64,000 bases of DNA, from the NCBI GenBank assembly GCA_046563655.1, contig CM102288.1:1736001-1800000 (forward strand), given 5' to 3'. The position numbers and the translations under genes were made by a program. The stretch's first letter is position 1, and each line of letters begins with the position of its first letter. Positions 3,599-59,873 of this stretch are shown here, one piece after another. The stretch comes from Yuukianura sp. NJ FZ-2021. Its lineage: Eukaryota. The notes under the pieces were generated by a model that did not search any database, had not been told where the DNA came from, and was given only the letters and a program-made list of their open reading frames with translations.

Positions 3599-5009
3599 CT
3601 TGTGGAAAATGCGTCACGCAAGAAGTCATACGCTTAACATTGAACCAATAACATCACGAGTTACAATGTTACAAATACTTTTAAAACCTGTGAATGATGA
3701 AACACTTGTCCTAGCTACTTAATTGACAGTTAACTAATCAGTAACGATTCATCATTCATATTACAACCGTCCATGGTTACCTGTAACCACTTTAAACTCT
3801 TTTTATAAACGCAGCTTATCAGTAAATGTTCACAGTTAATCTTGTTTACAGCGCCCCAAATTTTTGGGCGTTTCCAGCATCCAGCAGTGTGATACATTCT
3901 AATATTTCTATTCATCTTGTATAATTTAAAAAAAAACGTGTTTAGTATGTCACTTTCCGGCAGAAAATCGCACTTTAACACTTCACGTGGAGAACCATTT
4001 CACGTCACCCTCGTCCATCTTCTGACCATGAGTAATTAACACCTAAATTAAGACAATTAACACCCCGCTCCACACACCCAATAAGAAATATTTACTCCCT
4101 CTCTCTCAATATTTGCACGTTTAATTTTCTATACGTTTTTATTTACCACGGAAAATTCAATTATCAATTTCCATTCCCTTTTTCCTTTTCAAAATTCTTC
4201 ACTTCTCTTTTGAGCATAGAGTCATTTTTCCATAAAAACCTATGGGACTCTTAATTTTGCTTAATTAACTTCGCACTATTTCTTAATTAAGATCAGGAAC
4301 AAAAGTGGATAATAATAGCGTGAGGTGTTTGCTTTTATCATCACCATTTCAATAAAAAGTGTCAATATTTACACAATAATCAAGAATAGTGGCAAGAAAA
4401 AGCAAAACTGAAACCGATCTTTTAAAAACTAAAAATAGAGAAATACTAAAAACGAAATACAGCCCTACAAAAAAGAGAACAAAAATAATAAGAATATTTA
4501 AAGCTTATCACAATGTTTTTCATGTCATAGTGTTTCATTTTTAAAAATAAAATTTCGACAAAACGAAAAACAACATTTAAAATATAGAATGTTCTAAAAG
4601 TTTCTAAAATCAATTTAAAAGTTTTCGAAACATTTAAATTGATTCTCTTTGGTTTTAGGAGGAATTAAGGCGTTAGCTTAATATAAGTTAATTAAAGGAT
4701 ACTTCAGAGCTCTCTCACTTGAGCTCATTTTAACTTAAGTTTAATTAACCAAAAAATAATAATTAGCACCATCAATATTAATTAAGAAAGACTTTAACCG
4801 GGGGCACAAATCCTTTTAAATGCTTATAACAGATGAGGTGAAACAAAAAAAAAATAACGAAAGACAAACCACAGCTAAATTATTTGGGTCAGCCTTTCAC
4901 TTTTCAACAAGCTCAAATAATTTTTTCAGCTCCAGCATTTCTTAACTTGCGCAGTACTTTATGATACTCGACCAGTATTTCATGCTTACGATTGAGTTGC
5001 TCCATAAGA

Positions 5010-38813: not shown

Positions 38814-40918
38814 ATGAAGGAGGAGAAGAGTGATTTATTTAGTTGTGGGCAGTGCAGCTCGTCGTTCGTAACTAAACGAACCTTGGAGTCCCATACAAAG
38901 GCGTTTCATCCTCTGTCAAAGGTCAGTTCCACGGACGCGGACACGCCCGATCAGCATTTGTCACTGCCAGAGTCTCACTCTCAGGGATCGATGCCAAAGT
39001 TAAAACGAGCCAGTTATGCTTGTCAGCAGTGCAGCAAAAGATTTCCGACACAGGACGAACTGATACTCCATCAAAAATCGACTCATTCCGAAGTAAAAGT
39101 TATCCTTGACGGTCCGGAATCAAAACAGACAGCAAAACCACGTGCTTTGGTAAGAACTATTTCAAACGTTTTGAATTGGCGACATTTTGTTAGTCTAACT
39201 TTTTCAATTTGACCTTGTGTTTTACAGAAGCGACCTCTCGAGGTGAAAGATGAGGACGACGGTGACCTCAGAAATCAAGTCAAGACTAAAATCAAGATTG
39301 AGCCGAATGCGGATCCAATTGTGGAAGAAACAAACGACGTCAAGCCATTTGTCCATACAAATAATCGATTCTACCCATTTGCAAATGTAGAAAACTTTGA
39401 GATTACTGAAGTTGTCAAATCGCTGCTCATATCACATATGAACGCTGAAAGCGAACGGGAGAAAAAAGCTGCTGCAGCAGCAGCTCTTGAGAAGTCAACG
39501 TCTACAGCGATTGTGAAGTCACCAGTCCCAATGCGAGGAACAAAATATGAATCTGAGGATGACGAAGAAGATGAATTCGAAGGAGAAGGATCGTACGGAG
39601 CGACTTTCTCTCCTGAAAATGGGCACGACGTATTGTCTCCTCTTGTGAGCATGGACGAAGGGGACAACTTCAATACTGGAAACTTTGTTTGCAGCGATTG
39701 CGGAATTGAGTTTCCCACGGACTTCCAATTGGTGAAACACATGCAAGATCACGTCAGTCGTCCTCACAAATGCAGAATTTGTGGAAGTCGATTCGCGAGA
39801 AGTAAGTAAAACTTTTAATTTTGTAAAAATCAACTTAAAATAACTTTTTTTGTGTGTATTTTAGGGGAACACTTGTCGAAGCATCAGAGTTCCGTCCATT
39901 CCGGAATTAAATATACTTGTAAATACTGCTCCAAAGATATTAGCCGTCGAGATCACCTAATTCGTCACCTCCGAAGTGTACATCGCTGTGAGGTATGATG
40001 CTTGGAGTTCAGAAAAATGCTTTATTTCTACCAGACTAAACTAAATTTCGATTACTTTTTAGATTCCAAAGGGCCTTGACCTGTTGTCTGCTGCTGCTTC
40101 GAGTGTTCGAGTTAGTTCGAATTGTCCATCGGCTAATGTTACGGCTCAATACGATCCGGATCTGAATCTAACTGTGCAAAGTATGCAGCCTAAACCAAAG
40201 AAAGTGAATGGGACCAAATGTGACATGTGCTGTGAAACGTTTACGGTTTTGGAAGAGCTGTTCCAGCATCAGCGACAAGCTCATGGCGACATTCGCAGAT
40301 ACGATTGTAAGTTTCAACACAATTTCAACTTTGGATTTTGTAATTCATAATTTTTATCTGGACATTTCAGGTGCATATTGTTCTAAAAGCTTCAAACGCA
40401 ATGAACATTTGCAGGTAGGTAACAAGTGGAATTCTGCATTACAAAATGAAACCAATGATTGAAACTTTCAGCGATTATTTTGTTGCGTATTTTTGTAGAA
40501 ACATATTGTACTGCACACGGGTGAGAAGAACTTCGCTTGTCAGTTCTGTTCAAAGAGCTTTCCCAGAAGAGATGCCCTTCAAGATCACCTTCGCCGAGTT
40601 CACGGTTCAGTCAATCCAGCAGAAACTGAACAATTTTCATGCGACCTCTGTGACAGAGTGTTTGCCCAAAGTTCCAAACTGGTACGACACCGGAATCAAG
40701 TTCATAACATAACACTGGCTGTGGCCATTGCCAACGGAGGATCACTGTTTCGAAATCAAGACAATGATGGCCAGTACTCGACAGGCGATGATGGTTCCAG
40801 TGACACTGGGTTGATGGATTTCAACATTACAAAAGTGAAATTACCTCCAGTTCCAGGTCTTCTTCCAATCAACGACTTCCAATTCCATGCAGCCACTACC
40901 AAAGTGGGAAAGAATTAG
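38814..40918 (+). CDS. Multi-C2H2 zinc-finger protein (about 9 fingers)
   Basis: CGQCSSSFVTKRTLESHTKAFH, CQQC..., CSDC..., CRICGSRFARREHLSKHQSSVH, CKYCSKDISRRDHLIRHLRSVH, CDMC..., CAYCSKSFKRNEHLQKHIVLHTGEKNFACQFC..., CDLC.... TAG at 40916-40918. The true 5' start is uncertain. Confidence 0.85.
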
Positions 40919-41155
40919 AGGACTTTGGAGCTTGGCCTTTCTTGGAAATTATTTCTGAACTTATTTGCTAAAAAGTTTATATTTAAAGAGCTTCTTTTTC
41001 CTGTCAACATTATTTAATTGGATCACTTTATACTTTCATAAGTCTAAATTTTAAGTTTAATTTCCTAAAATGAGAAATTCTTTATTACCCTGCTGTCATT
41101 CTTTCAATTTATAGACGTTATGTTTTAAGAATTTTCGTAAACATAAGCAGAGATT

Positions 41156-41250
41156 GGGTCGGTCTAAAAGGCCGTAAATCAGAGCGTGTGTTAACAGCAT
41201 GGGGAGCGGCCGCTCATTTAACATTACGTTAGCATGGCTAAAAGGCCGTA
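41156..41250 (+). repeat. Left terminal inverted repeat (95 bp)
   Basis: Exact reverse complement of 52293-52387. Confidence 0.95.
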
Positions 41251-41520
41251 GATTGGAGCGCAAAGACGCGCTCCAACCGCTCAAATGGTGTAAAAGGCCG
41301 TAGATTGGAGCGCAAAGATGCGCTCCAACCGCTCAAATGGTCTAAAAGGCCGTAGATTGGAGCGCAAACATGCGCTCCAACCGCTCAAATGGTCTAAAAG
41401 GCCGTAGATTGGAGCGCAAAGATGCGCTCCAACCGCTCAAATGGTCTAAAAAGCCGTAGATTGGAGCGCAAAGATGCGCTCCAACCGCTCAAATGGTCTA
41501 AAAGGCCGTAGATTGGAGCG
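41237..41520 (+). repeat. Subterminal tandem array, 52-bp unit, 5 full copies plus a partial
   Basis: Units start at 41237, 41289, 41341, 41393, 41445 and 41497. Consensus TCTAAAAGGCCGTAGATTGGAGCGCAAAGATGCGCTCCAACCGCTCAAATGG, containing a 10-bp-stem hairpin. Confidence 0.95.
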
Positions 41521-41565
41521 TATTTCATCGAAGTTAAATTTATGAGTCTCAGCCACATTAATAGT

Positions 41566-42003
41566 TCACAACCATTCAAATCTTATATGTTTAATGTATT
41601 TTTTTGACAACAGAATTGAATACCCCGTTGAATACCCCATCTTTAAGGAATTGAAAATAGCGATCAATTTCTCTTTAATTTCAGGATAGTTTAACATAGC
41701 AATTTGGTTATTCTTCTGTAACTCGAAAACGTAGTGGCGGAACCAACCGCCCGCTATATTTTCAAGAGCTTCTCCGAGATACAAGGACCAGGTGTTTTCA
41801 AGTAGTCGGTTTGCCATGCAGGACATTTCGTAGAGCATGAGGAACTTATGAACATCCTCCTTCGGAGTTCCTCCAAACTTAGGGAACTTTACGGTAACTC
41901 TAACCATAGGAGCATTAGATGGGATGGATTGGGGGGTTTGGATAGTGGCTGCGGTTGACGACGGTGGGTTAGGCGCTGGTGTATTGTTAAACAAGTGGTT
42001 CAA
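41566..42003 (-). pseudogene. Ty3/Gypsy Gag capsid-like fragment (N-terminal half), transposon cargo
   Basis: VKFPKFGGTPKEDVHKFLMLYEMSCMAN...LYLGEALENIAGGWF...YPEIKEKLIAIF matches the retrotransposon Gag pattern. The upstream Pro/Ser-rich frame is interrupted by a stop, and the fragment is truncated next to the 52-bp array. Confidence 0.65.
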
Positions 42004-44280
42004 CCGGCTAGGCTGGATGACCTGATGACCTCCCGAGGGAGTGGCTGCATTGGATGGGGGTTCGTGGGAAGGGATGGTGTAGGGTTATGGGGAGTGTTCG
42101 GGGTGGACATTGTTATGAAGGTGGGGATTGGACAGTGTATGAATTTCTAACCTCGTTGGCCGGAGTAGGTGATGTCGAAGTGCTGGAACTGGCCGCAAGT
42201 TGGATGCGAGGAGCCGGTGGACACAGTGGGATAGGCTTGTCCTGAAAGATGCTTGATGGTACCGTAAAGGTGAGAGAATGAAATGGTCGAAGTGGTCCGT
42301 AGAGGTGTACCGTCACTTGGTGACTTACAAGTACTTCGAGAAGAGTCTTACGAATGGAAAAGTACTGGGCTAGGTAATACTCTGAGTTTAGGATCTGAAA
42401 GTGGACGGTGCTGTGAGAGAACTGAATGAAGCTTCGAATCTTCCGTAGGGATTTATAGAAAGAAAAGTGGTGGAATGGCTCAGTGCCATTTGGATCGGTT
42501 TCCACAAATAAGTTGGCAACCCAAAAGCCTTTGCCAATCTGCCAAATTTGAGTCTTGCCAAGTTGGCACGGAAATACAGTCGTTGTATATCCAGTTTTAG
42601 GAGTAAGAGAGCTCGTTGCGATCTTGCCAAGTTCCCTCAGTGTTGCAGAAGTTTAAAATTAAATCTCGGCCTGTCCTTTTAAGGTTTCGAACCCGGCCGT
42701 CAAAATGCTCCAAAGTCATACTTGAGCTGGGTGCTCGGATGTGTTCCTAAAAATAGGTGTCGCCTTATATGGGAACGGCGAGCGAAAGGACAGAATGTAG
42801 TGCGGGAATCGCGTGTCGAGATGGACGGTCGCCAAAACTCGGGGTCTCGTCCCTAGATGGCGAGAAAATGGAAGGGGGCTAGGTGAACCAAAGCTGTCCG
42901 TATGGCGCAGTCTCACAACAACAGGCCGTTGCCCATAATGTGATCCATACGATGTTGGGTGAATGCCAACTGACCGACGGCGGCCAGCAGAATGGCGCAA
43001 GTCGGGAATCGTTATGGCTGGGGTTTGACGACTTAGAAGAGGTGGAGAAAAGAGATGGGGTGCTGAGGTGGGGGATGGGATGGTGGGGAAGGCGGAGGAA
43101 TCTTAGAGAGGGGTGGGGGATGATTCTCGATCGCGGCCGAGGAAGGCTACAATAAGGGCGTAAGAAAAGGGATTGATTGTCGGTCGGGTGACTGGCCCTT
43201 GGTGCTGAGGGGAGAGTGCCGCAGGAGGCTGCTTTCGAATGGACCAATGTAGTAGCCTGGAGCTCGGCAAGGTCGAAATTTTACAGCAGTGCTCGGGCCA
43301 GATCGTTAGGTTCGGAAATTCGTGGAAGCTAGGAGACACTCCCATTCCCTTCATCCACAATAAAGACGATTTGGCCTAAACGCAATATGGTGTGAGCCCA
43401 CTTATTGCAGCGAGGAAAGTACCTCACCTGTTTTGTTAGCTTATAGATACACTCTCTCCTTCTCCGCCTTACACCAGACAGTAATAAAGACGATCTGGCC
43501 CACGCACAATAAAAGTATCTGGACCCTTGTTAGGCGATCTTGGATACGGACCACTTGAAAGGTGGTTGAGGACAAGGATTGGGGCTTGGGTGAGTGGTCG
43601 TAGGCGAGGAAGTGGGATGAAGGGTTCTCCTAAAAGTCCCGCTCAAGGGTCAGAGCCAAGGCCGTCTTTACCAGGGCCGTCTTTACCGTCTTTACCTTTG
43701 CAGCCGCGGGATACGCAGCTTGAGGTCTCAGTCTCTACGCGGGAGAAGCCTTCTCAGTGCTGGCCTTTGGCGTACACAGTGGGGTTCAGGGAGGATGCCC
43801 TTGAGACTCCGGACTTTGTCGTAGCAAGGAGAGTAGTTAAATGGGAATGTCGGAGAAGGTCGTTAGTTTAAGGCTTCTGGTGGTTGGACGCGGTGAAATT
43901 CCCTAGGTGAGGATGCCCCTCGTCGGTTGGTGGTGATGGCGGAGAGGCGATGGATCGTGTTGTGATGGTTCCTCAGTGGCAGCTTCGCAACTGGTGAAGA
44001 GAAGGTAGTTATGGTTTGGGCACGGTTTCTGCGCTGTACTCTCTGCTTGTTGGGATGAATTCCTAGTATGTTAAGAGAGAAGTATTAAGGTATGCTAAAT
44101 TTGAAGTGTGACCATTGACCTGAGGTCTTTACAGACAGGTCGTCGGTTGTGACGCCTGAATACCTGTACTGATGTACAGTCTTCTCGTTGGCCACTTGGT
44201 GCCCAAGGGGGTGAGCGTTCCGTCTACCCTGGGTAGCGAAAGCTGAACCTATGTTTTCTGATGAGAAATGTTATAGTTCT

Positions 44281-44500
44281 GCACTGCTTTGTCAACTTGG
44301 AGGGAAAATATTTGAGTTTCGCACTACTGTGCCAAATTCGTTGCTAGAATTTTGGAATTTGCCCTACTGTGGCAAATTGCTTACTAGAATTTTGATATTT
44401 GCACCCCTGTGAGAAGTGTGTTGCCAAAATTTGGAAATTTGCGCTACTGTGGCAAATGTGTTTCCAAAATTTTGGAGTTTGCGCTACTGTGGCCAATTTG
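44281..44500. repeat. Degenerate 40-bp tandem repeat (about 5.5 copies) inside the large element
   Basis: Units at 44281, 44321, 44361, 44401, 44441 and 44481. Approximate consensus GCRCTACTGTGGCAAATTTGTTGCYARAATTTTGGAATTT. Confidence 0.8.
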
Positions 44501-46112
44501 TTAAAGTGCAGATGAAATTCCTAATGAAGTAGAATAAGGGTTGCTTACTTTTTGGCTGGTGATAGAGAAGGGCTGGAAGATGATGTTACTGGTGGGACTG
44601 GGCGCTATTGGTCCATCCTGTCCCAGTCACTTCCACACACAGTGGCCCAACAAAGGTCAACGGATTTATAAGTCAAAGTGTGATGGTGTGGTTATCCGAT
44701 TGTTAATGTCGGTGTCACAAAATGTGCAAGTTAGTAAGCTTTTGTTGCTAATTGAAGAGTTAACTTGTGTAACCAGTGGGGCTGGGGCACATAGTACAAG
44801 AAGTGTTATTAGGATGAGAGTGAAAGCTGAACTAAAGTTGCTAAGCCTCATGCCGTGATGTGTTAAAAGTGCGTAAGTTTTTAAAATGAAACGCACCGAA
44901 ATTTGAAACCAGGGCCCGAGGATGGCCCTATTTGGACATGTTCAAGTCCACATTTAGGTTTCGTCCCTGGGAATTGTATTTTTAGGAAGAAGCAGCGGGA
45001 GGGCTACAGTTATCGTGGGAGTCAAGTGTTAGTGCGAAGGAAAATGGGGGAAAAAAATACACGCTGCGCATGTAAGGCTTATTCTAAGAAAAAAAAATCC
45101 GAGTTCGAAAAGGACCATAAAAGATGTGAGCCCTTGCCCCCTCTGATCTGGAGCCTGCGGCCAAGGTCTCACAACTTCTGTGAGCACCGCGGACCCCGAG
45201 GGGGTAACCCCAAGGTTCCCGGGAGAAAGTAGGAGAAGGGATGTTTGACCTCACCTCGACCTCGGTGAAAGAAAGCGGCATCTGACTGTATCTCGGGCGG
45301 TTCCTGGTTCAGAGTTTGAGAAAGTAGCGAGGTCATAGGGCGAAAGCGGAGGTGAGGGCGAAAGGCTACTCAGACTACAACTCCTCTGATCGAGTAAAGA
45401 AATCTCACCTAGGGGTCTGGAGAAAGTTCCGTTGCACACTTTTATTTGCACACCAAAGAAACAGAACGCAAGGAGCCTCAGTGACCTCCGGAGCGGAAAG
45501 GTTAAGTCCGGGTCAAGTACGGACTCAGCGGGTGATCTCGGCCAAGGGATGATCCCCCGGGCCGAGATCGCTCCGCTCCTCTTCCGAGCCGATCTCTCTC
45601 CTTCCTCTCCTGTCTCCAGACTCTCTCGAGAATCAGGTTCGCAAATCCTAATATGCGAATCTGAGTCTCCATTTTTAATGATAACGGGGTCATCTCCTAA
45701 TCAGGAGATGACTCTGCTAGGATTCCCGGGCAATTCGTGAAACCGAATTCCGCCGAACTTGGAAGCGATCTTGGAGGTTCTTCCAAGTTATGCGGAAACC
45801 ATGTCACTCCTAAATCCGCCTTACTGGCCCGGTTTAGGAGCTGACAGTGTAGTAGGCCTGGAGGTAACATGTACTCTTTAGATTTTAGGAGGTTGTAACA
45901 ATCAATCCCGAGCAAATCAATTAACTTGTCATTTAACTTCTTTGTATTCTCGTAGTTTAGAATTACCCATAACTTGCTCCCTCCTCAAATCATCAGGTTC
46001 AACTCGCAGAAGTTGCAGTCCTACGAGGCGGACGAAACAAATTCGTATTAACAAGAAGGTTACTGCGAGAAATTAATAAAGGAGTGTATTCGGTGGTAAG
46101 AAGGTGTTGGGC

Positions 46113-46897
46113 TCACCTCAGGATGGAAACCTGTTCCCGTGAAGGCGACACTCCAGTATACGGCACAATCGGTAACTCCTTCAATTCCTTTCTGCGGTAA
46201 CGGGTTGGAGACGAGGTTAGATGTGAACCATGTACAGAGCAGCAAAAGTGTGTAAAGAAATTAAAGAAACGGCTCACCCCGTAATGGTCTTGGTCCTTAT
46301 GCAGTGAGCTGTTGTATTTCCAAAGGGATAACGGGTCACAAAAGTCGTTGAGGTTGGTTACACCTAATTGGTTGGAAACAACTGTGTTTTGGCGTAGTTC
46401 TTGGTAGTTTTCTTCTTTCCCAAGTACTTCCTCAAAGAATCTGTCTAGAGTCTCCCGACTCCGCGTGAAGTCTGGATTTCTGAAAAAAGTGAAACGAGCG
46501 GAAGTGGCGTGCTGTACAACAATATCAACGTATAAGTTTAACAAATTTGAAAACGCTGCTTACGTAGATTTTCGAATTTCATCTCCGTCCGTAAGTCGAC
46601 GACCTCTGCTACCTTACCATGAACAGGACAGCCAAGCGTCGGATGTAAGCGATACGTGTAGCGAATGGACTTCCCAGAGGGCGAACGTAGTGTGGAAGCT
46701 AGGATGGCTTGGTTGAGGTTTAGTTTCTCGCCGAAACGGATAACGAATACGCCCGAGTCATTAATTTTATCTTGGTTTTCTCTCCTAACTGTTTGAATAT
46801 ATAATGATGGGTTCGCCAATCGCTCACCGATGAACTCGTGGATGTAGACGTTCGAGTTCCAAGGGTAATGCTGAAACATATAACAAGTACTAGCCAT
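46113..46897 (-). pseudogene. Orphan, apparently spliced gene fragment (transposon cargo)
   Basis: Two consecutive protein-like ORFs (119 and 143 aa) separated by a gtaagc...gtacag intron-like stretch whose phases do not match. No recognisable domain. Confidence 0.35.
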
Positions 46898-47364
46898 AGT
46901 TAAAGAACCCCTGTAACATGTTAACTTTTTGTTGTAGGTGTACTGATTAGTCTGATGTTAATCAAGCAGAGATCCCAGGTTAGGTTACCTTAGGTTAGTA
47001 TACGTTAATTTCAAGCGAAACGATTCTGTTAGGTTAACAATCACACAACTTTAGCAGCTGTACCAAATTTGCACAGAACAATTCTTTGCCCTCAACCTAA
47101 TTTCTAGTGCTTCAAATTTGGTGCTTCCTACCCTTCGAGTAATAAGACAACAACAAGACACTTACCATTCCGGAATAAATTGGTGACGAAGCTGAACAAA
47201 GTCAACGAGTTACGTGTCAAAAAAAAAAAAACTACAAACATAGGTACATAGTAAACTGTAGCAACTGGAACAGAAAACACGGCGAAACAGAAAATTCAAA
47301 TGGCCCTGACTAAAAGTCTGAAGTGCTATCTGAAGTTACTGTCTGAAGTGACGTAACTTCGTCC

Positions 47365-48363
47365 AGGAATGTGGGAAATGTTTTATTGTTTTATGGCGAA
47401 TGAAAGCGTGACAACTATGGAAGTCTTGCTGAAATAACTCCTGCATTTCACGTTCAAAGGCAGATTTGCAATCGCGACTGATGGCGTACCGTTGTTTTCA
47501 GTACAAAATTGTAAAATAAATTCGTTAAAACAATGTTACTTTAGTTAATTTTACTCACCACATTTTTTTCACCACCGTCTTCGCCAATACACTGATTAAC
47601 GGAGTACAGCTCGCAGTCTTCTGTGTGCCACTGACCGAATGAATTAAATACCCCAGCATACATGTAGGGGTGTGTTATTCCGGGAACGTTGTAGTCCGAG
47701 ATTATACTTCCCAAATGCGCTTGATTCATCTGCAATCCTACTTCCTCTTCCGGCTGGTAAGGCATTCCATTCATGTAGGGCGTATTGTTACAAGCAATAC
47801 TTGCCCAGAAATCGTTCTCTGCATCCTGGAGCACTTCATATGCTGGAATTCTTCTAAAGGGAAAACATATAATGTTTAGGTGCTTCGGTGAATTTCGTCG
47901 AAGTTTTTCAGTTTGATTTTAAACTTTACTCGTTCTGTTTGAAGTAATTGGCAATTGTTTCCTTGTATTCACGTCCAGGAGCAGTAGTATACACTCCGTT
48001 TCCCACATCTGTTATGTTCACACGTCTTCCAGAGCTTCTAACGCGGCTTCCAGGGATTGCGCCACGTAGCTTTATTTCCCCCGATCCGGTTGTACAAAAT
48101 GCTAATTGCCTGAACTGTACGCTTTCAAGCATGTCAATACGCAGCGGCACAATTTGCTCTTCCGGAATAATCTTTAGAAAAGAGTGACCAGTTTTCAACT
48201 AAACCTTTAATTATTCAAAGATGACTGATACCTTAAAGATTGGAACATTTTCAGGAATTTTTGCTTCCATAACAACGACGTAATCCGAGAATCTGTCAAG
48301 ATCTGCCTTCGTTGCCTTGAAACTTGGTACTTCCAATCCAACCACATCTGATGGATTGCAAGG
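47365..48363 (-). pseudogene. KDM4/JMJD2-like JmjN-JmjC histone demethylase, intron-containing, decayed and 3'-truncated (transposon cargo)
   Basis: Exons 48363-48232, 48171-47930, 47853-47559 and 47489-~47365. JmjN: EVPSFKATKADLDRFSDYVVVMEAK...IFK|IIPEE. JmjC: AENDFWASI...VPGITHPYMYAGVFNSFGQWHTEDCELYSVNQ...GEK(M)W|YAISRDCKSAFERE...DFHSCHAFIRHKT. Confidence 0.85.
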
Positions 48364-49372
48364 CTGGAATTTGTTAAGCGTAATTTAAGGCACCTAGCAC
48401 ACTACATTGTTACCATTAGCAGACTGGTAGGTTGTCGATTCTGGTGCAGTGAAACTTTTTTTCCAAGTTGTTTGGCCAAAATTTATGAAAAATGTTTCTT
48501 CAAAGATTCGCTTTTTATCATGTCTAACGTTTTTGGAACGTTTAGAGCAAACAAATTTTTTTGACGGTAAGGGTCCCCTCTTTCCGTGTTTTCTTTTAAA
48601 TGTGGTGGTAATGTGGACCACCGCGGTTGAGCATTTCGTCGCCCTCTAACTGGTGCTCAATTGGAACGTTAAAGACGAAGTCTTTCTGCCGTAGCATGTT
48701 GGCTAGCATGGCATTCACTCGAGTACCGAGTCGAACCGACTCAAGGTAGATGTTGTAAGCACGCATTTTCTCCGGCTCCGGCATGGAGTCGAAGTTTAGC
48801 GGTGGAGTGAGTTGGTGTCCTTGCCATTTTACTTCTCGCTGCCAGACTTTATAGTTCAACTCCCTGCCTTCGGTCACCGAGATGTTAGGTTGGTACAAAT
48901 TGTTGTGCATTCTAGAAAGCAGAGGTGAAATGTTAACCTGCTACTAGGTTAACAGTTAGATTCGTGTGATCAGTTGTTCGACTATTTGAAGTATCAAAGT
49001 GTAATGTGATTTTTATTAATTCTTAATTATTTAATCAAGAATATAGTCGTGTGGGTGATGAGGTGCTTCGACTACTGCCGAAACTTGTTTGGGTCGGTGG
49101 CGGAGGAAATTACGTAGGAGCCGAGCCCTCAGTACGTTCGGAACTAGAAAATTCCTATAAGTCCACCGACATTTTCTTTCCAAAATCTAAGTACTGGATT
49201 CAGACAAGGTAGAGTCAAATTGTTCCCGCCCGTTGGTACAAACGAGTTGATCCAAATCTGACTCACAAGTTACTTCTCCCAAGTTTATGGTGAAGAATTG
49301 GAGAACGTGTTATCTGCGTCCCGTCAAACGGTCGCATTACGTACTTAATAGCTTTAGAATATGCAACAATGT

Positions 49373-49670
49373 TTAATCGGATGTCAAGTAGGTCAGATCT
49401 GGAAAACCAATAGAGGAATCTGACCGTTCAGCAATTTCCAAAAGTGTTCGAAGCTTCGTCATGGTTTCAGGGTTATGCATGCCAATTTGACGCCGCAAGG
49501 TCGGTTCCAGACCCCTCAGCGTATATTTCACACGTAGTGAGTCGTTCATGTCTGGATTGACTCTATCCGCAAGGTTCTGCATGTGTATGAAATAGTCAAG
49601 ATGAGCTTCTCCCTGTTTCTGTTTTCTAGAAAGCAATTGCCATTCGTTTCATGTCATAGGCCATAGCCAA
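49373..49670 (-). pseudogene. Gag capsid-like fragment (C-terminal half), transposon cargo
   Basis: EWQLLSRKQKQGEAHLDYFIHMQNLADRVNPDMNDSLRVKYTLRGLEPTLRRQIGMHNPETMTKLRTLLE matches the major-homology-region pattern of Ty3/Gypsy Gag. Frameshifted at its 5' end. Confidence 0.7.
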
Positions 49671-49676
49671 CACGTC

Positions 49677-49716
49677 TCAAATGCAGTGAGACCACCCCTG
49701 GTCTCACTGCATTTGA
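49677..49716. other. Perfect 18-bp-stem hairpin
   Basis: TCAAATGCAGTGAGACCA-CCCC-TGGTCTCACTGCATTTGA. Confidence 0.9.
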
Positions 49717-50699
49717 TGAATTTTTTTGAAAAAAATAAACAAAATTGAAAAGTCGTTCCCAAGTGACCCGGGTTGAAGGTCACAGAATTATTCCCATTGT
49801 GTCCACAATCGTAAAGTTAACTTTTGTATTAAATAAATGTTCGATGAGTGTTTGAAATGTTGAAACGTGATAAGAAATTTTAACCTTCAAAGATTTCTAA
49901 CGCTTTGGAGGTTTTGTTTTTGCCTCTGAATTGCTATGTGCAATAAATGTGAAAGCGATATGGGCAATAAATCGGGATCTTTGGATCCCTTAAGTTATGA
50001 ACTTCACTCACTTATTCTTTGATCGTGATGCATGCGTAGACCATGACACTGGAATCAGTCTCATCTCAGATTCTAACTAGTATAGGTTTATATTACATTT
50101 GGTGCAAAAACCACGATGCCAGGAAAAAAATGGCAGACTATGAAGTCTGAACGCAAAACAAGAGAAAGAATGGGGGTGTTTCACGTAAGTTATTTTTTTT
50201 TTTAAATATTTGTACTAAATAGTAATCATACATCTAGAAACTATATGATTCAGATGCCGAGTACCTCTCGTGACAATCCGACGGGAAGGGGCTGCCAAAA
50301 AAAAACCAAACAAACGAAATAAGGTTTGATTATTTCCTATTATTTCTGATTGGCGCAAGGTTTCATTTCCTGTTAGTACCTTACGCATACAGTTTAGGTT
50401 AGTCGTACGCGTGTCTTTGTGTAAAAGACTGTACGCAGGAGATTAAAATATGTGGAGGTGGATGCGTTTTACTTTATAAATTGAATTCCACATACCGTTC
50501 TAAAGATCATGAAAGTGCGCATGCGCCATTGACGTTCCAAGGCTTTTTTGTTACGCGCTTTTACTTTCTACGCATAAATTAGTTACCAATATAAAACAAT
50601 ATATATTAACGGTTAAGTGTATTCGTTTTATTTCCGCACTTCCAGCACGCTCGAGCGCCAGTAATTTTGTCTTAGTCTTTCGAGTTTTTGGTGTATAAT

Positions 50700-51080
50700 T
50701 CAAAAATCGCTGGGCAAAGAATTTTGAAAGCATGCTAGCGTCACCATTGTCGCTTTGTCCTCACGTGCCACAGGCTGCTCATCCGGATTCAGGCAGAAGT
50801 CCAATTTTCGTCGCACATAAGAATTTGTGCCTGGAGGAGGCAGGAACTCTAAAAGTGCTTTGTGAATCGATTTCAGTCTATTCTTACATGAAGAACATAA
50901 TGCGCGGTTATCTGCTCTATCCCTGACAGGCGTGAATTGTAGTTGTGAATTCATCCTGAATAACAAAGTTTTCAAAGCTTGCCCCACAGTCACATTGCAA
51001 TCCCGCAATGTTGCGGAAAATCCAATAATATCTTGACTATTCTTGAAGGGTTTGTCGCAATTATCGCAGTGTCTGTTCAT
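50700..51080 (-). CDS. ZAD (zf-AD)-like C2-C2 zinc-finger ORF, transposon cargo (possibly first coding exon of a longer, decayed gene)
   Basis: MNRHCDNCDKPF...TVGQALKTLL...NRALCSSCKNRLKSIHK: two CxxC pairs about 50 aa apart followed by an amphipathic helix, as in ZAD domains. Confidence 0.5.
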   Translation of the reverse strand: MNRHCDNCDKPFKNSQDIIGFSATLRDCNVTVGQALKTLLFRMNSQLQFTPVRDRADNRALCSSCKNRLKSIHKALLEFLPPPGTNSYVRRKLDFCLNPDEQPVAREDKATMVTLACFQNSLPSDF

Positions 51081-51481
51081 TTTCGTGCCGTCTGTTCTTT
51101 CTGAAATTGGGTCCAACTGATAGTGTATCCACCTTAAAGCACCAGACTTCAAACCAGAACTAATTTCAACCACAGACTGACAGGTTCAGACAGACTGCCA
51201 ACCACAGCTTCATGAGTTGTTAGTGAGTCACTTTCTAACTTGGAAACTAGGCAGAAGTGGCGGTTATCTCCCATCAGACACAGAATGGGTTAAAGGCATC
51301 GTAAAACAGAAATACATCCCCCGCCTAACTATGGACAATGCAATGCAAGTTAAAATGGTTTTTAATTTAATCAAAATTGATTTTGTTTTGGAGCAAAACT
51401 TGCTCCCTCCTGTTCATCGAAATTATTTTTTTTGGAGAATGTTCTAACATAACATAACCATTACAAAAGATTTAGGAAAAA

Positions 51482-51894
51482 TTTTACTTTCAGTGGGTAA
51501 CTCCGATTTTCGTAATTTTTTTTTTTCACAAATACCCTTTGACCCCCTGACTATGAAAATATAATTTTTTTTGACCCGCTCTCAAAAATTTCGAATTTTT
51601 AAAAAATTTTGAAAATGGGAAATTTCCCATAAGGTCACATGTTAACTTTTCTTAAAAATAAATCCCTTTCTCGAAGCCTAACCTAAACCTAACCTAACGA
51701 AATAAAACCAATAACCTATTTTGAGAAAAAAATTAACATGTGTCCTTATGGGGAAATTTCAATTTTCAAAATTTTATAAAAATTCGAAATTTTTGAGAGC
51801 GGGTCAAAAAAATTATATTTTTATAGTCATGGGGTCAAAGGGTATTTGTGAAAAAAAAAATCACGAAAATCGGAGTTACCCACTGAAAGTAAAA
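51482..51894. mobile_element. Fold-back/MITE nested in the large element
   Basis: About 180-bp imperfect inverted arms (51482-51660 and 51717-51894; TTTTACTTTCAGTGGGTAACTCCG... / ...CGGAGTTACCCACTGAAAGTAAAA) around a short CCTAA-repeat core. No clear TSD. Confidence 0.75.
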
Positions 51895-52292
51895 CTTTAC
51901 CAAGATTTACATCTAAATCTAAATTTTTACTTAAAACCGAAAACGAGTACAAAAAACATGAATTTCCTTCGTTCAACAAAAATTGTGCATCGATGCACAA
52001 TCGGTGGATCCACCGATTTCCCATCTCTTAACATTATACACACTCGCCTTATGGAGTGAAACCCAACCGTGTTTGAGGTGAGCGAAAGTAAACAAACAAA
52101 CACGGTTGGCATCCTAACAACTTGGTGGGTCTGTTTGATCCCACCAGAGGTCACAAGGTCAACCGAGTGGTCTGGCTCCAGTGGATCGGTCAGTATCCAC
52201 GGAAGCCAGCGCGGTGACCATAACACAATCTACGGCCTTTTAGACCATTTGGGCGGTTGGAGCGCATCTTTGCAATCCATTCTACGGCCTTG

Positions 52293-52387
52293 TACGGCCT
52301 TTTAGCCATGCTAACGTAATGTTAAATGAGCGGCCGCTCCCCATGCTGTTAACACACGCTCTGATTTACGGCCTTTTAGACCGACCC
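52293..52387 (-). repeat. Right terminal inverted repeat (95 bp), preceded by one degenerate inverted 52-bp unit (about 52227-52292)
   Basis: Exact reverse complement of 41156-41250. Confidence 0.95.
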
Positions 52388-52474
52388 GCAGAGATTACCC
52401 CGAATGCCTTGTGGAGGGAAGTGGAATTTGAGAAGAGAAGATAAACTCACTTTTTAACTTGTGTAAAAGTGGAC

Positions 52475-54349
52475 ATGTCATTTTTCTCTGAACATCGCGG
52501 TACTTTCTCTCGCGTAAAAGAATACCGGAAGAAGAATGACCTCTTCGTGGGTGACCGGCAAGTGGATGGCGACATTCTGGAAGTTGTCCAGCTTCAAGAG
52601 AAAGCGATGTCTGCCTTCGGGAGGAATTTTCCGGGTAACAGCTGGTGGCCATCATGGAACTTAATGTTAACTGTCAGAACAATTTTTCTACCGTGCGGAT
52701 TCCCCGAATCGGTGTCATCAGATTACGTCCAGTACCAAATCTTCGACACGATTCAGGTAAGTATCAAGATTTATGTCACTTCTTAGATAATTTTAAAGCA
52801 ATTTACAGTTAACATTGATGAATAATTTAACAGGCTTTCTCGTCTTCCATTACTGGTGCTCTTGCGACGGAAGCAGTATTCAAGTCAGTGGGGGTTGGAA
52901 CTTCTGAGGCAACACCGCTCGCTGCGGCAGTCACATGGTTAGTAATTAGTTTCTGAATTTACAATTGTAATTAGTTTCATCTGATACTTTGTTCATTCTA
53001 GGTTAATAAAAAGCGGAAGTGGAATGGTCAGTGGAATCGTTTTCACATGGTCTAAGGGGTACCAAATTAAATCAAACATCTACAGAAATCAAGATCCCCA
53101 GTTTGGTTAACATTTCTGTAATGTCTTTCTTTTCAGGACAGCGCTTGACTACGATAACAAGAAATGGCGATTGTTCGCTGATATCCTTAATGGTAAGCGT
53201 ATTTCTTCCGATAAACAGATCTGCTTGGGATACACTGTGAAGTTATCATGACGTAACTAATTGCTAACTTCTATTCTGTTTAGATTCGGCAATCTTTCTG
53301 GACCTTATAACACCTCTGTTCCCATCGAATCTTGTGATCTTCATGTTCTCCTTATCCAGTATTGCCAGAGCTTTAGTTGGAGTGGCTGGTGGAGCTACAA
53401 GAGCAGCGATTACACAACATCAAGCTCGAAGACAAAACGCTGCCGACGTTTCAGCTAAGGATGCTTCACAGGAAACGTTGGTCAATTTAGTCAGCTTAAT
53501 TGTCAGTCTCATTCTCCTTCCGATTGTGAGCGGTCGCCAACTGTAATTGACTTTCTTGTCAAGTTTAATTTCAAACATAAATGAGGTTTTTCCTAACCTT
53601 CGTTGTTTATTTTACAGAATTGTTTGGACTCTGTTCTTCGTCTTCACATTTCTCCACGTTTTTGCAAATTACCAAGCACTTCGGGCTCTGAACCTGGAAG
53701 TGTTCAATTCTAGTCGCCTTCTTTTTGCTCTCCAACGGTTTCTACTTTACCAAAAAGTTCCTACAGTTTACGAAACTAATCAAAATGAATCTCTAATTGT
53801 TGGATTCGGCATCAAAGGTAACTTCGAAACTAAAAATTCAATAATCGGATATCTCTGATGTTAAGATTAATTTCTCGTTTTTAATTATCAGATCGGGACG
53901 TTTGTAAATTTTCTATAAGAGTTGGTGTTTCGCTTGAGGAGGCACTGCCCAGTCTTTCTACTGCAGAAATCAGTGCAGCTATTCATGATTCGGAAGGGAA
54001 ACCATTTCTCATCTTTGGAAATGCTCAAAGAAGAACGATTTATATAATACTTTCCGAAAATATTGGGTCTACGTCCATCCTAGAAGCCTACGCTCGGTCG
54101 ATACTTGCCGCACATAACTTCAATGCTAACGTGGAGGTCAGTACTTTGTATTTCACTAGTATTTACAATGGTGTTGTTCGCATAACGGAACAAAATTTTT
54201 GTAATTTCCAGAAGGTTTTACGTCCACATTCTCCAGAAGTAACTAAAGCGTGGGAAACGTTTTACCATGGAGCGACTTCTGAAGGATATGACCTGTCCTC
54301 TGCTCTGATTCAAAGTGATGATTGGAGAGCAAAATGGAAACATTCCTGA
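52475..54349 (+). CDS. RUSF1: RUS1 family protein (C16orf58/RUSF1 homolog, DUF647), multi-exon
   Basis: IFLPCGFPESVSSDYVQYQIFDTIQAFSSSITGALATEAVFKSVGVG...ATPLAAAVTW; KKWRLFADILND; ALVGVAGGATRAAITQHQARRQNAADVSAKDASQETLVNL; LHVFANYQAL; DDWRAKW. TGA at 54347-54349. Confidence 0.93.
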
Positions 54350-56644: not shown

Positions 56645-59600
56645 TTATAAAGCAAACATCTTATTCTCTTGCTTCTCCTTGTCCAGAGTTGATCTTGTCG
56701 TTGGTGGTTGCCTGGATTCGGAAGCAGCATTTGCCCTTTCCTGCAGAAATTTATCAAATTCTGAACTTGTTAGGGACTCTCCACCAACAGCACCAGGCTG
56801 AAATCATAACACCAAAACCAGCAAATTATTAGAAACCATTCCACAAAAACCTAAATCTACAAAATAAAAATACAAATCGTACATTTGCCTTGAGCCATGC
56901 TTCCATTTCGTCAAAGTCTGATTCCCTGTGCATCTGTTACACAAAGTCAATTTTTGGAAAATTAAAAATTCAACTTTACAATTTCTACAAAAACCACCAA
57001 AACCGAAAAAACTAAACCAACCTGGATAATTGCTTCCTGTGGAACGACAAAACCCAAAAATGAGACAGAAAGAACAGAAGACACCACCGAACGTGTAAAA
57101 AGAAACACCCAAATGAGAACAGACAAAAACCAAAGTATAAATCCAGCAGTACACAACGAAATAAGAAATCACAAAATCCACAAAGCCCAAATTGTGCACA
57201 GTGAACTTAAATTGCAAATTATTTTGTCAAGTATTTTCTTACGTCAATTTCCGGTTCAGTCCTCCTTGCAACTGCTCCTAAGCTGTTAGCTTGATCCACG
57301 TTGGAATTGTCAGCGTATGTACTTCCGCTGGGAAATGTAAAATACCGATGTAAAATCAATTACGAATCAGCAAATCAAAACTATTTTGATGATTGATTAC
57401 CTTAATTTTGACTTTTCATATGAGGCCGTCCGTGACTGAGCAAACATGTCAAAGTCACTTTCATCTTCTGGTTTGCGGACACTGGACTTCTGCATGGCAC
57501 TATTATCTTTAAGGTTAAGTCCAGTTGACATTTTCTGTGCCGTATTGGACACAGCCTCGGCATTCCCATCTCCCCAGTCTATCAACGACGGTTCGGATTC
57601 ATTCTTTTGCAGTGAAGTTGACGAATTCACTGGTCCACCTCCTGTCTTCTCAATATTTTTCCGATACCGGCCATACCTGAAAACAAAAATAAAACGGCGT
57701 TTAAGTCCAACAAAAAAAATCAGATTCTAACGAAAACTAAAGATGCTGAAATCTTTCCCAGCGCAAAACACTAAAACAAAAGTTGATTTTCATCCAAAAC
57801 AATTTTTAAAAAATTAATAATTGTAGGTTCTACTGAGAATCGAACTCAGATCTCGAGATTCAAAGTCTCACGTGCTAACCATTACACCATAGAACCACTG
57901 GTTGAAATGACCGTTGCCAAAACTCATCCTATGCGGTGAGTCATTCTGCGATGAGTTTTTGCAGACACTCATACACAAGAGCAAATTGCAATATAGCATT
58001 TCACACCTCACAGTAATTATAATCAAAGAAATTGAGTTGTAACTGACCTCAAAAAGAGATTATTCAACTCGTCATTAATATGAAGCATCTCTGCCGTCAG
58101 CTCATCAGAGGACACAGTGCAAAGTAGCTCCGCAATTCGTCTCTGCATCTCTTTGCATGTGCTGTACAGCTCCTGCAAAAGTAATTAAATTGCAACAATT
58201 GTTTTTCTGCTATACCAGCAAAACATAAAAAAAAGCAAAACACATGCTCGTTGAAAAACTATTAAATATTGAACAGTTAATTAAATCAATCAATTCTTAC
58301 CTGCAGAAGTTGCATGTCCTGTGGATCCTCATTTCCTGGCTTCATTTCTGACAACATCTCTGCGAACACTGCAATGTTCGACTGTACCAAGTCGAGGTCC
58401 CGACGAATCTTCACCACTTGATCACCGCTTACCTGAGACATAATCAGTTAACGTTAGTCCACTTTTTCTAACAACAGGCTAAAACTTGAAGGTTTTCGTT
58501 CGCAGTCCGTGATTAATTCACGTCAAAGTTTCTAGAAAAGTCTACTATTTAGTCTATTATCTTCGTGACTTGACTAACAAAACCAACTGAAGAGAAGTTT
58601 AACTGTGTAATTTTGCTCTACCGAGTCAACTTGAAAAGGAAGTCATTAGAGTGTGACGATGATGAGGAGCAGAGCAGGAGAGAAAATCAAACAATGGACA
58701 GACTACACGTTAAAACTCCGAAACCATGAAACGGCAGAGGGGAGTTGAACCATTATAACGAAAAATCTCATGAAGAAGTCATTTGTAACACAACGGTAAT
58801 CTCGATTCCCAAAAAAGCTCTCGCCCCTCAAAAATTTTTGCAAATTACTGTTGCAAAAATAGGTCTTTAAAAGCAATGTTGAGTTTTAGAGATTTTTGCA
58901 CAAACTCACCTGACGTTCGCCGAGATCAACGGGATGCAGAATTTGTTCCGCCTCTACGCTCTAGAAACACCAAAACAAATATGCGTAACAAGATCAAACA
59001 AATTCCTAGTACAAGATAAGATTCTCTACATTGGTTGATAACTTTAAATCAAAGTGTCGGTAACCCTGGAGGATCCATGAACCGCAATACTTACACGTTT
59101 TGGTGTCAATATCGGTGCCATACTGCCAAGATCCGTCATCGGGAATTCAATTCCTTTGCTCTTCAGTTCATGATAAACTTGTACAACGCCCGAGAGCTCC
59201 GGGTCTCCGTTAAAGGTATCTGCCCAATTTTGGATCAATTCCAGCACTTTCTCCTGGATTACTAATGGTGGGTCGTTCTTAGCACCTAACACAAGAAAAC
59301 AATAAGTTAATGCAGCGCTTCGAAACGATTGATTCATGTATAGAACATTGAATTTCAACTCACCAATCAGTTTCACCATATCCTGGACAAAATCCTTATG
59401 ACACACCAGGATATGAAAACGTTTCGAACAGTTCTTGACACATGCTTCCAAAATCGTCAAAGTGTACATTATGACATTGTAGTTTCTTCCAGAACTTTGC
59501 CCCAGTCTCTTCTTTATCGCCCGAATCGCGTCTTTTCCAGCTTCATCGGTCTGATTAATGTCGTCGCAAATACTCATAATCAAGGACCAGTCTTCGGATG

Positions 59601-59873
59601 CATTCTGTAGATCCGTCGCTTGTTCTATTTCAGAAACATAAGCAAATCAATTAAAATGAATCGTCAATTGGAAAGTTAAACCGACCCCTCATTTGCATGT
59701 CCAAAATATATTCTCACTGTACATTACCGAAACCAATAGCATATCGTTCAAAGTTCAACGTACTATTATTATAGAAAACATTCCTTACCAATTTTACGTC
59801 CAACTGGTGTTGAAAATGGGTTTCCACTAAACAGGGACATGATTGGTTCAAGCGACTTCTTGGCTTCCTCCAT
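56645..59873 (-). CDS. TOM1L2: TOM1 / TOM1-like 2 (VHS plus GAT endosomal adaptor), multi-exon
   Basis: [22 protein letters not shown]...[32 protein letters not shown]...[11 protein letters not shown] (VHS); GAT exons; [31 protein letters not shown]...MFAL*. Start is either 59873 or 59840. Confidence 0.92.
57825..57896 (-). tRNA. tRNA-Gln (anticodon TTG), intronic in TOM1L2
   Basis: GGTTCTATGGTGTAATGGTTAGCACGTGAGACTTTGAATCTCGAGATCTGAGTTCGATTCTCAGTAGAACCT forms a full cloverleaf with A/B boxes, followed by a T5 run about 12 nt downstream. Confidence 0.93.

Follow-up and report, generated by a model that had tools for sequence, protein, structure and literature searches.

A truncated and strongly diverged KDM4-like gene fragment within a putative non-autonomous Mutator-type element of Yuukianura sp.

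How does part of a gene for a histone demethylase come to lie inside a transposable element, and could it serve the element that carries it? The question is posed by a window of 64,000 nucleotides (nt) of Yuukianura sp. NJ FZ-2021 (assembly GCA_046563655.1, contig CM102288.1, positions 1,736,001 to 1,800,000 of the forward strand), the whole stretch of DNA that was analysed and the one to which all coordinates below refer. An earlier note, made from the letters of this window, had described a KDM4-like gene borne by a transposon and had proposed it as an anti-silencing gene whose intact relatives could erase the heterochromatin of their own elements. Four minus-strand exons can be read together as JmjN and the first ~60% of a KDM4-type JmjC core, and they sit within an 11.2-kb element that has terminal inverted repeats (TIRs) as well as a target site duplication (TSD). 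We favour, with moderate confidence, a passive reading of this arrangement, modelled on the plant Mutator-like elements (MULEs) called Pack-MULEs, in which a transposase-less Mutator-type element carries the truncated KDM4-like gene among repeat debris. The fragment ends after about position 243 of the 394 positions of the KDM4 core and therefore misses half the JmjC barrel as well as the distal His that binds iron; lacking both, its predicted product could not act as a demethylase.

Anatomy and divergence of the KDM4-like exons

The four exons have canonical splice sites and are separated by introns of 60, 76 and 69 nt; the acceptor of the third intron is a special case that is taken up below. 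Their homology was measured with a KDM4-core profile of our own, 394 positions long and built from 46 of 109 proteins, selected for an H-x-E-D motif 100-330 residues in with at least 200 residues after it. The scan covered all six-frame open reading frames (ORFs) of at least 15 amino acids (aa) in the window, and the positions and E values in the following list are those of this profile.

48363-48232, minus strand: exon 1, most of JmjN (positions 8-41 in ORF 48214-48384, the place of JmjN in the profile; E 0.044-0.05)
48171-47930, minus strand: exon 2, JmjN-JmjC linker; its start continues the JmjN motif, and the spliced model aligns through it
47853-47559, minus strand: exon 3, start of JmjC, with G-I-T-H-P-Y-M-Y-A-G, W-H-T-E-D and L-Y-S-V-N (positions 113-195 in ORF 47544-47918; E 2.5e-19)
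47489 to about 47380, minus strand: exon 4, W-Y-A-I ... C-H-A-F-I-R-H-K (positions 203-243 in ORF 47339-47497; E 5e-9)

Judged from its sequence, the start of JmjC in exon 3 is a solid identification. When its ORF (47544-47918, minus strand) was compared with the PDB by phmmer, 57 distinct sequences matched at E<=1, the best at 5.6e-8; KDM4D and KDM4A chains scored 8e-8 to 4e-7, Rph1 4e-6 and KDM5 chains 0.19-0.78, and by these values the ORF lies nearer KDM4 than the other JmjN/JmjC subfamilies. The H-x-E iron ligands are held by its W-H-T-E-D motif. Searching the window with 109 proteins by tblastn gave 165 matches, 164 of which fell on exons 3 and 4, all on the minus strand (110 at 475xx-479xx and 54 at 473xx-474xx), with one stray at 567xx. 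For exon 3, the Pfam JmjC score is 16.4 bits, short of the cut-off of 24, over positions 1-27 of the 114 in that family, and at E<=1 no family, JmjN included, was found in the exon-1 or exon-2 pieces; exon 2 taken alone matched neither Pfam nor our KDM4-core profile. The order of JmjN followed by JmjC that the earlier note had read from the exons is well founded for the start of JmjC, through the PDB and our own profile, and is weakly suggested for JmjN, by collinearity and the profile match at E 0.044.

Spliced as they stand, exons 1-3 form one domain over profile positions 8-195 with exon 4 out of frame; once four letters at the end of exon 3 (47571-47574) are left out, the spliced model aligns over positions 8-242 (134.9 bits, E 4e-43). 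Homology ends shortly past R-H-K in exon 4, and the ORF meets its stop at 47336-47338. Profile positions 244-394 were unmatched in any frame of the window, and beyond the three ORFs listed nothing scored below E 1. The fragment consequently shows the H-x-E pair and not the full H-x-E ... H triad, the distal His lying outside the retained part. Both a KDM4-like piece with its introns kept and a truncation ahead of the third iron-binding His had been described in the earlier note, and both are confirmed. No in-frame start codon precedes JmjN in exon 1.

No known KDM4 is close to the fragment. Aligned over about 222 columns with the KDM4s of a nematomorph, an ostracod, a rotifer, fishes, a mammal, fungi and an alga, the spliced product reaches 24-30% identity; animal KDM4s compared with one another reach 54-62% (nematomorph-fish 62%, rotifer-fish 55%). 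Fungus and fish agree at 49% and alga and fish at 41%, and the KDM4s of fungi and algae stand nearer to animal KDM4 than this KDM4-like lineage does. In a quickly built tree of 49 rows (the window model and 48 of 225 proteins, namely the named ones, the top unnamed matches and the fragments), the end branch of the window measures 1.59 against a median of 0.29. By both measures the divergence goes far beyond what the lesions of this copy could account for, as had been claimed. Despite this distance, about 258 codons are free of stops once 47571-47574 are set aside, and 29 of the 49 columns conserved in at least 90% of 32 full-length rows are kept, H-x-E, Y, N, K, W and C..R-H-K included. Compared with the cores of KDM4A, KDM4C and KDM4D of the KDM4/JMJD2 family, the fragment is thus alike in the order JmjN-linker-JmjC, in its best PDB matches and in these conserved residues; it differs in its low identity, in ending near position 243 of 394 with no distal His, in having no PHD or Tudor parts, and in a Pfam JmjC score below the cut-off.

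The nearest relatives of the fragment are metagenomic pieces that look like exons, 39-49% identical to it. Of 1.84 billion representatives, 107 scored E<=0.001, the best being P0001 (E 2.7e-16, 46% identity), a 91-aa ORF on a metagenome contig of 1089 nt. Three members, each on a contig of its own and drawn from two sources, make up its 90% cluster; all three end where exon 3 of the window ends, and the cluster shares with the window several derived residues as well as the motifs G-I-T-H-P-Y-M-Y and H-T-E-D-C. In the tree, the window joins P0001, P0109 and P0096 (SH-aLRT 91, not starred, with long branches flagged), and this group sits outside the starred animal KDM4 clade; an approximately unbiased (AU) test does not reject its placement with animal KDM4 (p 0.46). 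The simplest origin for the lineage would be a fast-evolving offshoot of animal KDM4. In P0096, a fragment of 106 aa, Tyr replaces the first iron-binding His, and to judge from this residue at least one member of the lineage is likely to be catalytically dead.

Longer relatives were sought by several routes. The exon-3 ORF had no match among longer or near-length proteins in the protein collections. Profile A2, run against longer proteins, gave 169 matches among 8000 scored candidates, all of them generic KDM4/JMJD2; identity was 25-42% for most and at its highest 59%, across a quarter of the query. Those with names were KDM4A, KDM4B, KDM4D and JMJD2. With this profile, scans of contigs gave 47 pattern matches in metagenomes and 39 in viral contigs, none of which was confirmed. 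No copy with the distal His was found in the 1.84 billion representatives, in a collection of 5.8 billion clusters, or in the metagenome and viral contig scans, and none of the intact family members that the earlier note had envisaged turned up in these collections.

The carrier element

The exons lie between two perfect TIRs, each bordered by the same nine letters, and the gene is inside a DNA transposon, as had been supposed. The ends of the element are as follows.

41147-41155, no strand assigned: left TSD copy, 9 bp, GCAGAGATT, identical to 52388-52396 (checked by script)
41156-41250, plus strand: left TIR, 95 nt, beginning GGG, 100% complementary to 52293-52387
41186-41572, plus strand: subterminal minisatellite, about 6-7 copies of 52-bp units, abutting the left TIR
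52293-52387, minus strand: right TIR, 95 nt, perfect partner of the left TIR
52388-52396, no strand assigned: right TSD copy, 9 bp, GCAGAGATT, the same letters as the left copy

Apart from the two ends of the element, the terminal 31-mer of the TIR is absent from the window; 0 occurrences would be expected by chance. One or two related minisatellite units stand beside the right TIR at 52226-52306 (52226-52291 against the left units, 91-94% by blastn), and in metagenome contigs the combined TIR/minisatellite pattern was matched 0 times. In MULEs the TSDs are 8-11 bp and the TIRs long (PMC6446971), and the termini of these TIRs are G/C-rich (PMC13359780). The element has the 9-bp TSD, the long TIRs with G/C-rich ends and a minisatellite by the TIR; the DDE transposase of the superfamily is missing, no transposase family being found at E<=0.05 among 91 ORFs of at least 50 aa in 41000-52600. 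From its ends, which are what the superfamily assignment draws on, the element appears to be of Mutator/Rehavkus type, and it is non-autonomous.

Two described groups offer a comparison. Rehavkus elements, known from arthropods and annelids through Repbase, combine a minisatellite with TIRs of 26-400 bp and a TSD of 9 bp (PMC6446971), and the present element agrees with them in its TSD, in a TIR within that range and in a minisatellite beside one TIR. It differs in that the transposase with a PHD finger that defines Rehavkus is absent; moreover, the Rehavkus minisatellite precedes the 3' TIR of the autonomous element (PMC6446971), whereas an element without a transposase has no definable orientation. 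With the Pack-MULEs of rice, maize and Arabidopsis it shares long TIRs, a 9-bp TSD, the want of a transposase, an internal gene fragment that keeps its introns, and a position just upstream of a gene. In contrast, plant Pack-MULEs are mostly 1-2 kb long, with none above 7 kb (PMC6431247), against 11.2 kb here. The interior of the present element is largely other repeat debris, and its cargo may have entered by self-acquisition or by the nesting of another repeat. That cargo is too far from any known KDM4 to have been copied recently from an ordinary host gene. Carriage of gene fragments by Pack-MULEs is established in plants (PMC6446971, PMC6431247) and has been claimed in a myxozoan (preprint 10.64898/2026.02.11.705288). 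No JmjC or KDM4 gene was described as transposon cargo in the literature searched, whose coverage excluded subscription journals and Repbase; the word 'demethylase' does not occur in the available text of PMC6446971 or PMC6431247, nor do 'Jmj' or 'histone' in that of PMC6431247.

Lesions, alleles and copies in two organisms

Read data were taken as Logan contigs of four public runs and compared with positions 40500-53500 of the window. For X1, X3 and X4 the source was a single sample of organism A, and the fourth run, X5, comes from organism B. X5 was taken as DNA, given an even flank depth across genic and intergenic parts and an unspliced contig of the neighbouring gene. The X1 contig of the adjacent RUS-type gene has four GT..AG joints between 52753 and 53283, and X1 therefore contains RNA; we treat it as an RNA run on the strength of this spliced contig, its record bearing no RNA label. 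Three features bear on how damaged the KDM4-like copy in the window is.

47571-47574, minus strand: four extra letters at the end of exon 3, absent from every overlapping contig of X1, X3, X4 and X5
47490-47491, minus strand: acceptor of intron 3, CG in the window and AG in other contigs
47317-47349, plus strand: threefold TCTGAAGT repeat, adjoining the end of the KDM4 homology

Removing the four letters puts exons 3 and 4 in one frame and, since they are present in no read contig, they may be an assembly error. The earlier note had ascribed the frameshift to an extra A in a homopolymer; the frameshift is there, with the same effect on the frame, but it is better described as these four letters, which are missing in all four runs. 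The CG acceptor is real in the window and in X4 but is AG in X1, X3 and X5. The change 47491 G>T takes up a depth of 36.6 out of 36.6 in X1, 456.1 out of 456.1 in X3 (two contigs) and 164 out of 164 in X5, as against 0 out of 109.1 in X4, whose contig over 47409-47841 matches the window except for 47571-47574 and keeps G at 47491. Both lesions are private to this assembly or to one haplotype, and less damaged copies or alleles, which fit the interpretation of the earlier note, do exist, as reads without 47571-47574 and with an AG acceptor. The threefold repeat is present as reported, its units starting at 47317, 47329 and 47342, just past the point where KDM4 homology ends. Breaks in the contigs of X1, X4 and X5 fall between 47331 and 47399-47447, and one X5 contig departs from the window sequence at 47447, inside exon 4.

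Larger differences separate the copies as well. In X1 and X3 contigs, the 1513-nt segment 48192-49704 is swapped for 13 other letters, and this form has no KDM4-like exon 1. The right breakpoint, 49705, is placed within a hairpin loop whose 18-nt arms match perfectly (49677-49694 / 49699-49716), and many contigs begin or part from the window sequence there. The depth of X3 is 111 at this joint and 102.6 at the joint 41630>45847, where a 4.2-kb segment is missing, about half of the ~240 found in the flanks. We read these half-depth joints as a second haplotype, paralogues being the alternative.

Depth tells the two organisms apart. The X5 contigs reach 164 over 47447-48133 and 113.7 over 48106-48597, against 3.7-6.9 in six flank contigs; the TIR bins reach 12-20, about 2-3 times the flanks, versus ~20-29 times for the KDM4-like contigs, all of these being k-mer depths, which are not copy numbers. 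We read them as roughly 20-29 copies of the KDM4-like piece in organism B, multiplied independently of the TIRs of this element; with the TIR bins at ~2-3 times, the multiplier was therefore not this element. In organism A, depth over 47444-48311 is ~1-2.5 times that of the flanks (X3, X4). The high-depth X5 contig ceases to match the window at 48597, a point that coincides with one end of a 14-nt inverted pair (47269-47282 / 48584-48597). That pair was considered as an element boundary and ruled out, a flank-depth X5 contig running through 47269-47331.

Over 47399-48095, an X1 contig retains introns 2 and 3, among the contigs and joints listed, and X1 contigs cover 30 of the 30 bins of the element, unspliced. 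Of the 8 substitutions between the window and this X1 contig, the 566 exonic nt hold 2 and the 131 intronic nt hold 6 (Fisher p 0.0008). The signal of constraint is weak because the intronic changes lie in three tight clusters and so represent fewer events; moreover, both exonic changes alter a residue.

The element stands between a C2H2 zinc-finger gene on one side and a RUS/DUF647-type gene on the other (Pfam UVB_sens_prot at 52445-52783), and its flanks are ~98-99% alike between organisms A and B. An X5 contig (40500-41239) crosses the junction of left flank and TIR, with 7 other letters; the insertion is therefore older than the split of A and B, and it is old and fixed. The spliced X1 contig of the RUS/DUF647-type gene (52374-53283) starts 14 nt into the right TIR; the element may contribute some of the 5' end of the RUS-type transcript, or the contig may just break at the repeat.

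Apart from the KDM4-like exons, the interior of the element is a patchwork of insertions, Gag-like scraps and a foldback repeat.

41631-45846, no strand assigned: 4.2-kb G+C-rich segment (GC up to 0.52), missing from X1, X3 and X5 contigs (joint 41630>45847)
46116-46957, minus strand: two adjoining ORFs of 139 and 148 aa with one frame change between them, directly downstream of the KDM4-like exons
48599-48940, minus strand: upstream ORF of 114 aa with a Met start, followed by frame-shifted ORFs down to 48397
49376-49648, minus strand: retrotransposon Gag-like ORF fragment (Arc_C E 0.065 and Ty3_capsid E 0.13, both under the cut-offs; likeness by eye)
51470-51906, no strand assigned: foldback repeat resembling a miniature inverted-repeat transposable element, near the right end, 84% identical over 436 nt to its own inverse

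The 4.2-kb segment is an insertion in the haplotype of the window. It bears a Gag-like ORF recognised by eye (41569-42084, minus strand) and 40-bp tandem repeats at 44271-44510; it has no pair of long terminal repeats, no clean TSD and no Pfam family. For the two ORFs directly downstream of the exons, the Atlas language model pointed weakly to the C-terminal region of hAT transposases (scores 0.76-0.80); there was no relevant match in Pfam (E<=10) or the PDB, and a single-sequence AF2 model, with a pLDDT of 38.5, was unusable. Upstream of the exons, where the earlier note had placed a frameshifted exon that might belong to the same gene, ORFs do exist at 48599-48940 and 48397-48645 and are frame-broken; no Pfam family was found in either. 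The arms of the foldback are 84-96% complementary, and X3 depth over it is 3282-3778 against ~240 in the flanks, so the family of this repeat is very abundant. Within the repeat, at 51586/51791, one contig connects opposite strands. Also within the element, a 161-aa ORF (50703-51185, minus strand) has two C-x2-C pairs ~55 residues apart and is ZAD-like by eye, reaching no Pfam threshold. Outside the element, a tRNA gene lies at 57825-57896 (minus strand; Rfam RF00005, 69 bits), upstream of a TOM1-like VHS exon at 59044-59646.

Origin of the cargo and its significance

In the passive reading, an 11.2-kb element of Mutator/Rehavkus type would have inserted once between the C2H2 zinc-finger and RUS/DUF647-type genes, giving rise to the 9-bp duplication, and would then have accumulated its passengers, namely the 4.2-kb insertion, the Gag scraps, the foldback repeat and, from a KDM4-like gene, its 5' portion. 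Since the introns are retained, this portion would have been acquired at the level of DNA; its source gene would have undergone rapid evolution over a long period while its coding sequence stayed constrained. The portion may have been captured by the element itself or may have landed inside with a second repeat that carried it; thereafter it would have been carried passively, as in Pack-MULEs, while in sister organism B the same piece would have been multiplied by some other vehicle. The sequences themselves show the anatomy of the locus, its homology, the truncation within the window, the divergence and the differences between copies; the mode of acquisition, the passivity and the functional source gene are what we infer. 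Several points weigh against this account. P0001, P0108, P0109 and P0096 are fragmentary ORFs on several short contigs, which fits a repeat-borne gene family too. The scarcity of exonic substitutions would fit continuing constraint on the exons, and all conserved positions of active-site type that are available in the retained part are intact. With contigs breaking at 47331-47447, longer copies reaching beyond exon 4 are possible, and capture from a host gene is presumed with no parent gene identified.

The proposal with which the earlier note had ended makes the KDM4-like gene a resident accessory of a transposon family, whose intact members would remove or mask H3K9me3 on their own copies and of which the window would hold a recently damaged member. 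Fragmentary relatives, divergence and multiplication in organism B are what an anti-silencing family would predict. The lineage is very diverged yet open-reading; it groups with exon-like fragments from other organisms, with derived residues and an exon end in common, albeit at a node (SH-aLRT 91) that is not starred; contig depth in organism B is ~20-29 times that of the flanks; other copies or alleles are free of both named lesions; and the gene piece sits within an element with TIRs and a TSD. Against this, no intact copy appeared in any collection searched, the carrier is without a transposase (0 of 91 ORFs), and its TIRs were not multiplied alongside the gene piece in organism B, which together speak against a gene resident in this element. 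By our own reading, the 30 letters past 47447 in the X5 contig do not continue the KDM4 frame; P0096 has Tyr at the first iron-binding His; and X1, which holds spliced RNA of the neighbouring gene, keeps the introns in the listed contig over exons 2-4. We regard such an accessory gene as improbable. An anti-silencing role, which these data neither exclude nor support, would be just as doubtful, and the parallels that might be drawn for it are analogies: VANC of the Mutator-like VANDAL elements of Arabidopsis would be alike as an element-encoded factor, and the fission-yeast JmjC protein Epe1 as one that counteracts heterochromatin, in both cases under the anti-silencing hypothesis only (PMC5735166, PMC10398659, PMC7192584). 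VANC, to which no relation in sequence is to be expected, differs in acting through sequence-specific binding and not histone demethylation, and Epe1 differs in being a host gene. We hold no better odds for a variant in which an animal repeat family, probably of arthropods (a guess from the short introns and the host range of Rehavkus), carries its own fast-evolving KDM4 demethylase, the window and P0001, P0109 and P0096 being one mobile lineage, the depth in organism B a recent burst, and the window a truncated passenger nested in the Mutator-type element.

A host origin deserves somewhat more weight, although we still think it unlikely in the form that follows. The source would be a fast-evolving host KDM4 paralogue, perhaps germline or conflict-driven, that was amplified in organism B, and the fragment would act, if at all, as RNA, its read-through or TIR-driven transcripts entering small-RNA control of the parent gene in the manner proposed for some Pack-MULEs. 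The AU test leaves the lineage with animal KDM4 unrejected, amplification is seen in organism B alone, with X3 and X4 at ~1-2.5 times the flanks over 47444-48311, and X1, which holds spliced RNA of the adjacent gene, covers every bin of the element with unspliced contigs. The RNA nature of X1 is nevertheless a guess, its contigs give neither strand nor level, and no parent gene was seen. It would be more unlikely still that the locus encodes a short protein of JmjN and half a JmjC with a non-catalytic role, the frameshift being an assembly error. The letters 47571-47574 are indeed missing in all contigs of the four runs, including the X4 contig that is otherwise identical to the window (47409-47841), and without them the four exons read through to the stop at 47336-47338. 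However, no start codon precedes JmjN, the upstream ORFs are frame-broken, the window-like haplotype retains the CG acceptor, and half of a double-stranded beta-helix is unlikely to fold.

Read as passive cargo, the locus is a clean animal case of a Mutator-type element with an intron-bearing gene fragment, a phenomenon well known in plants and little documented in animals. Of greater interest is the origin of the cargo, which is very distant from KDM4 yet open-reading and appears to have been multiplied in a sister organism. If its source were a transposon-resident demethylase, a mobile element would here be countering heterochromatin in a new way; if the source were a host paralogue, it would be a rapidly evolving chromatin gene, possibly one driven by conflict.

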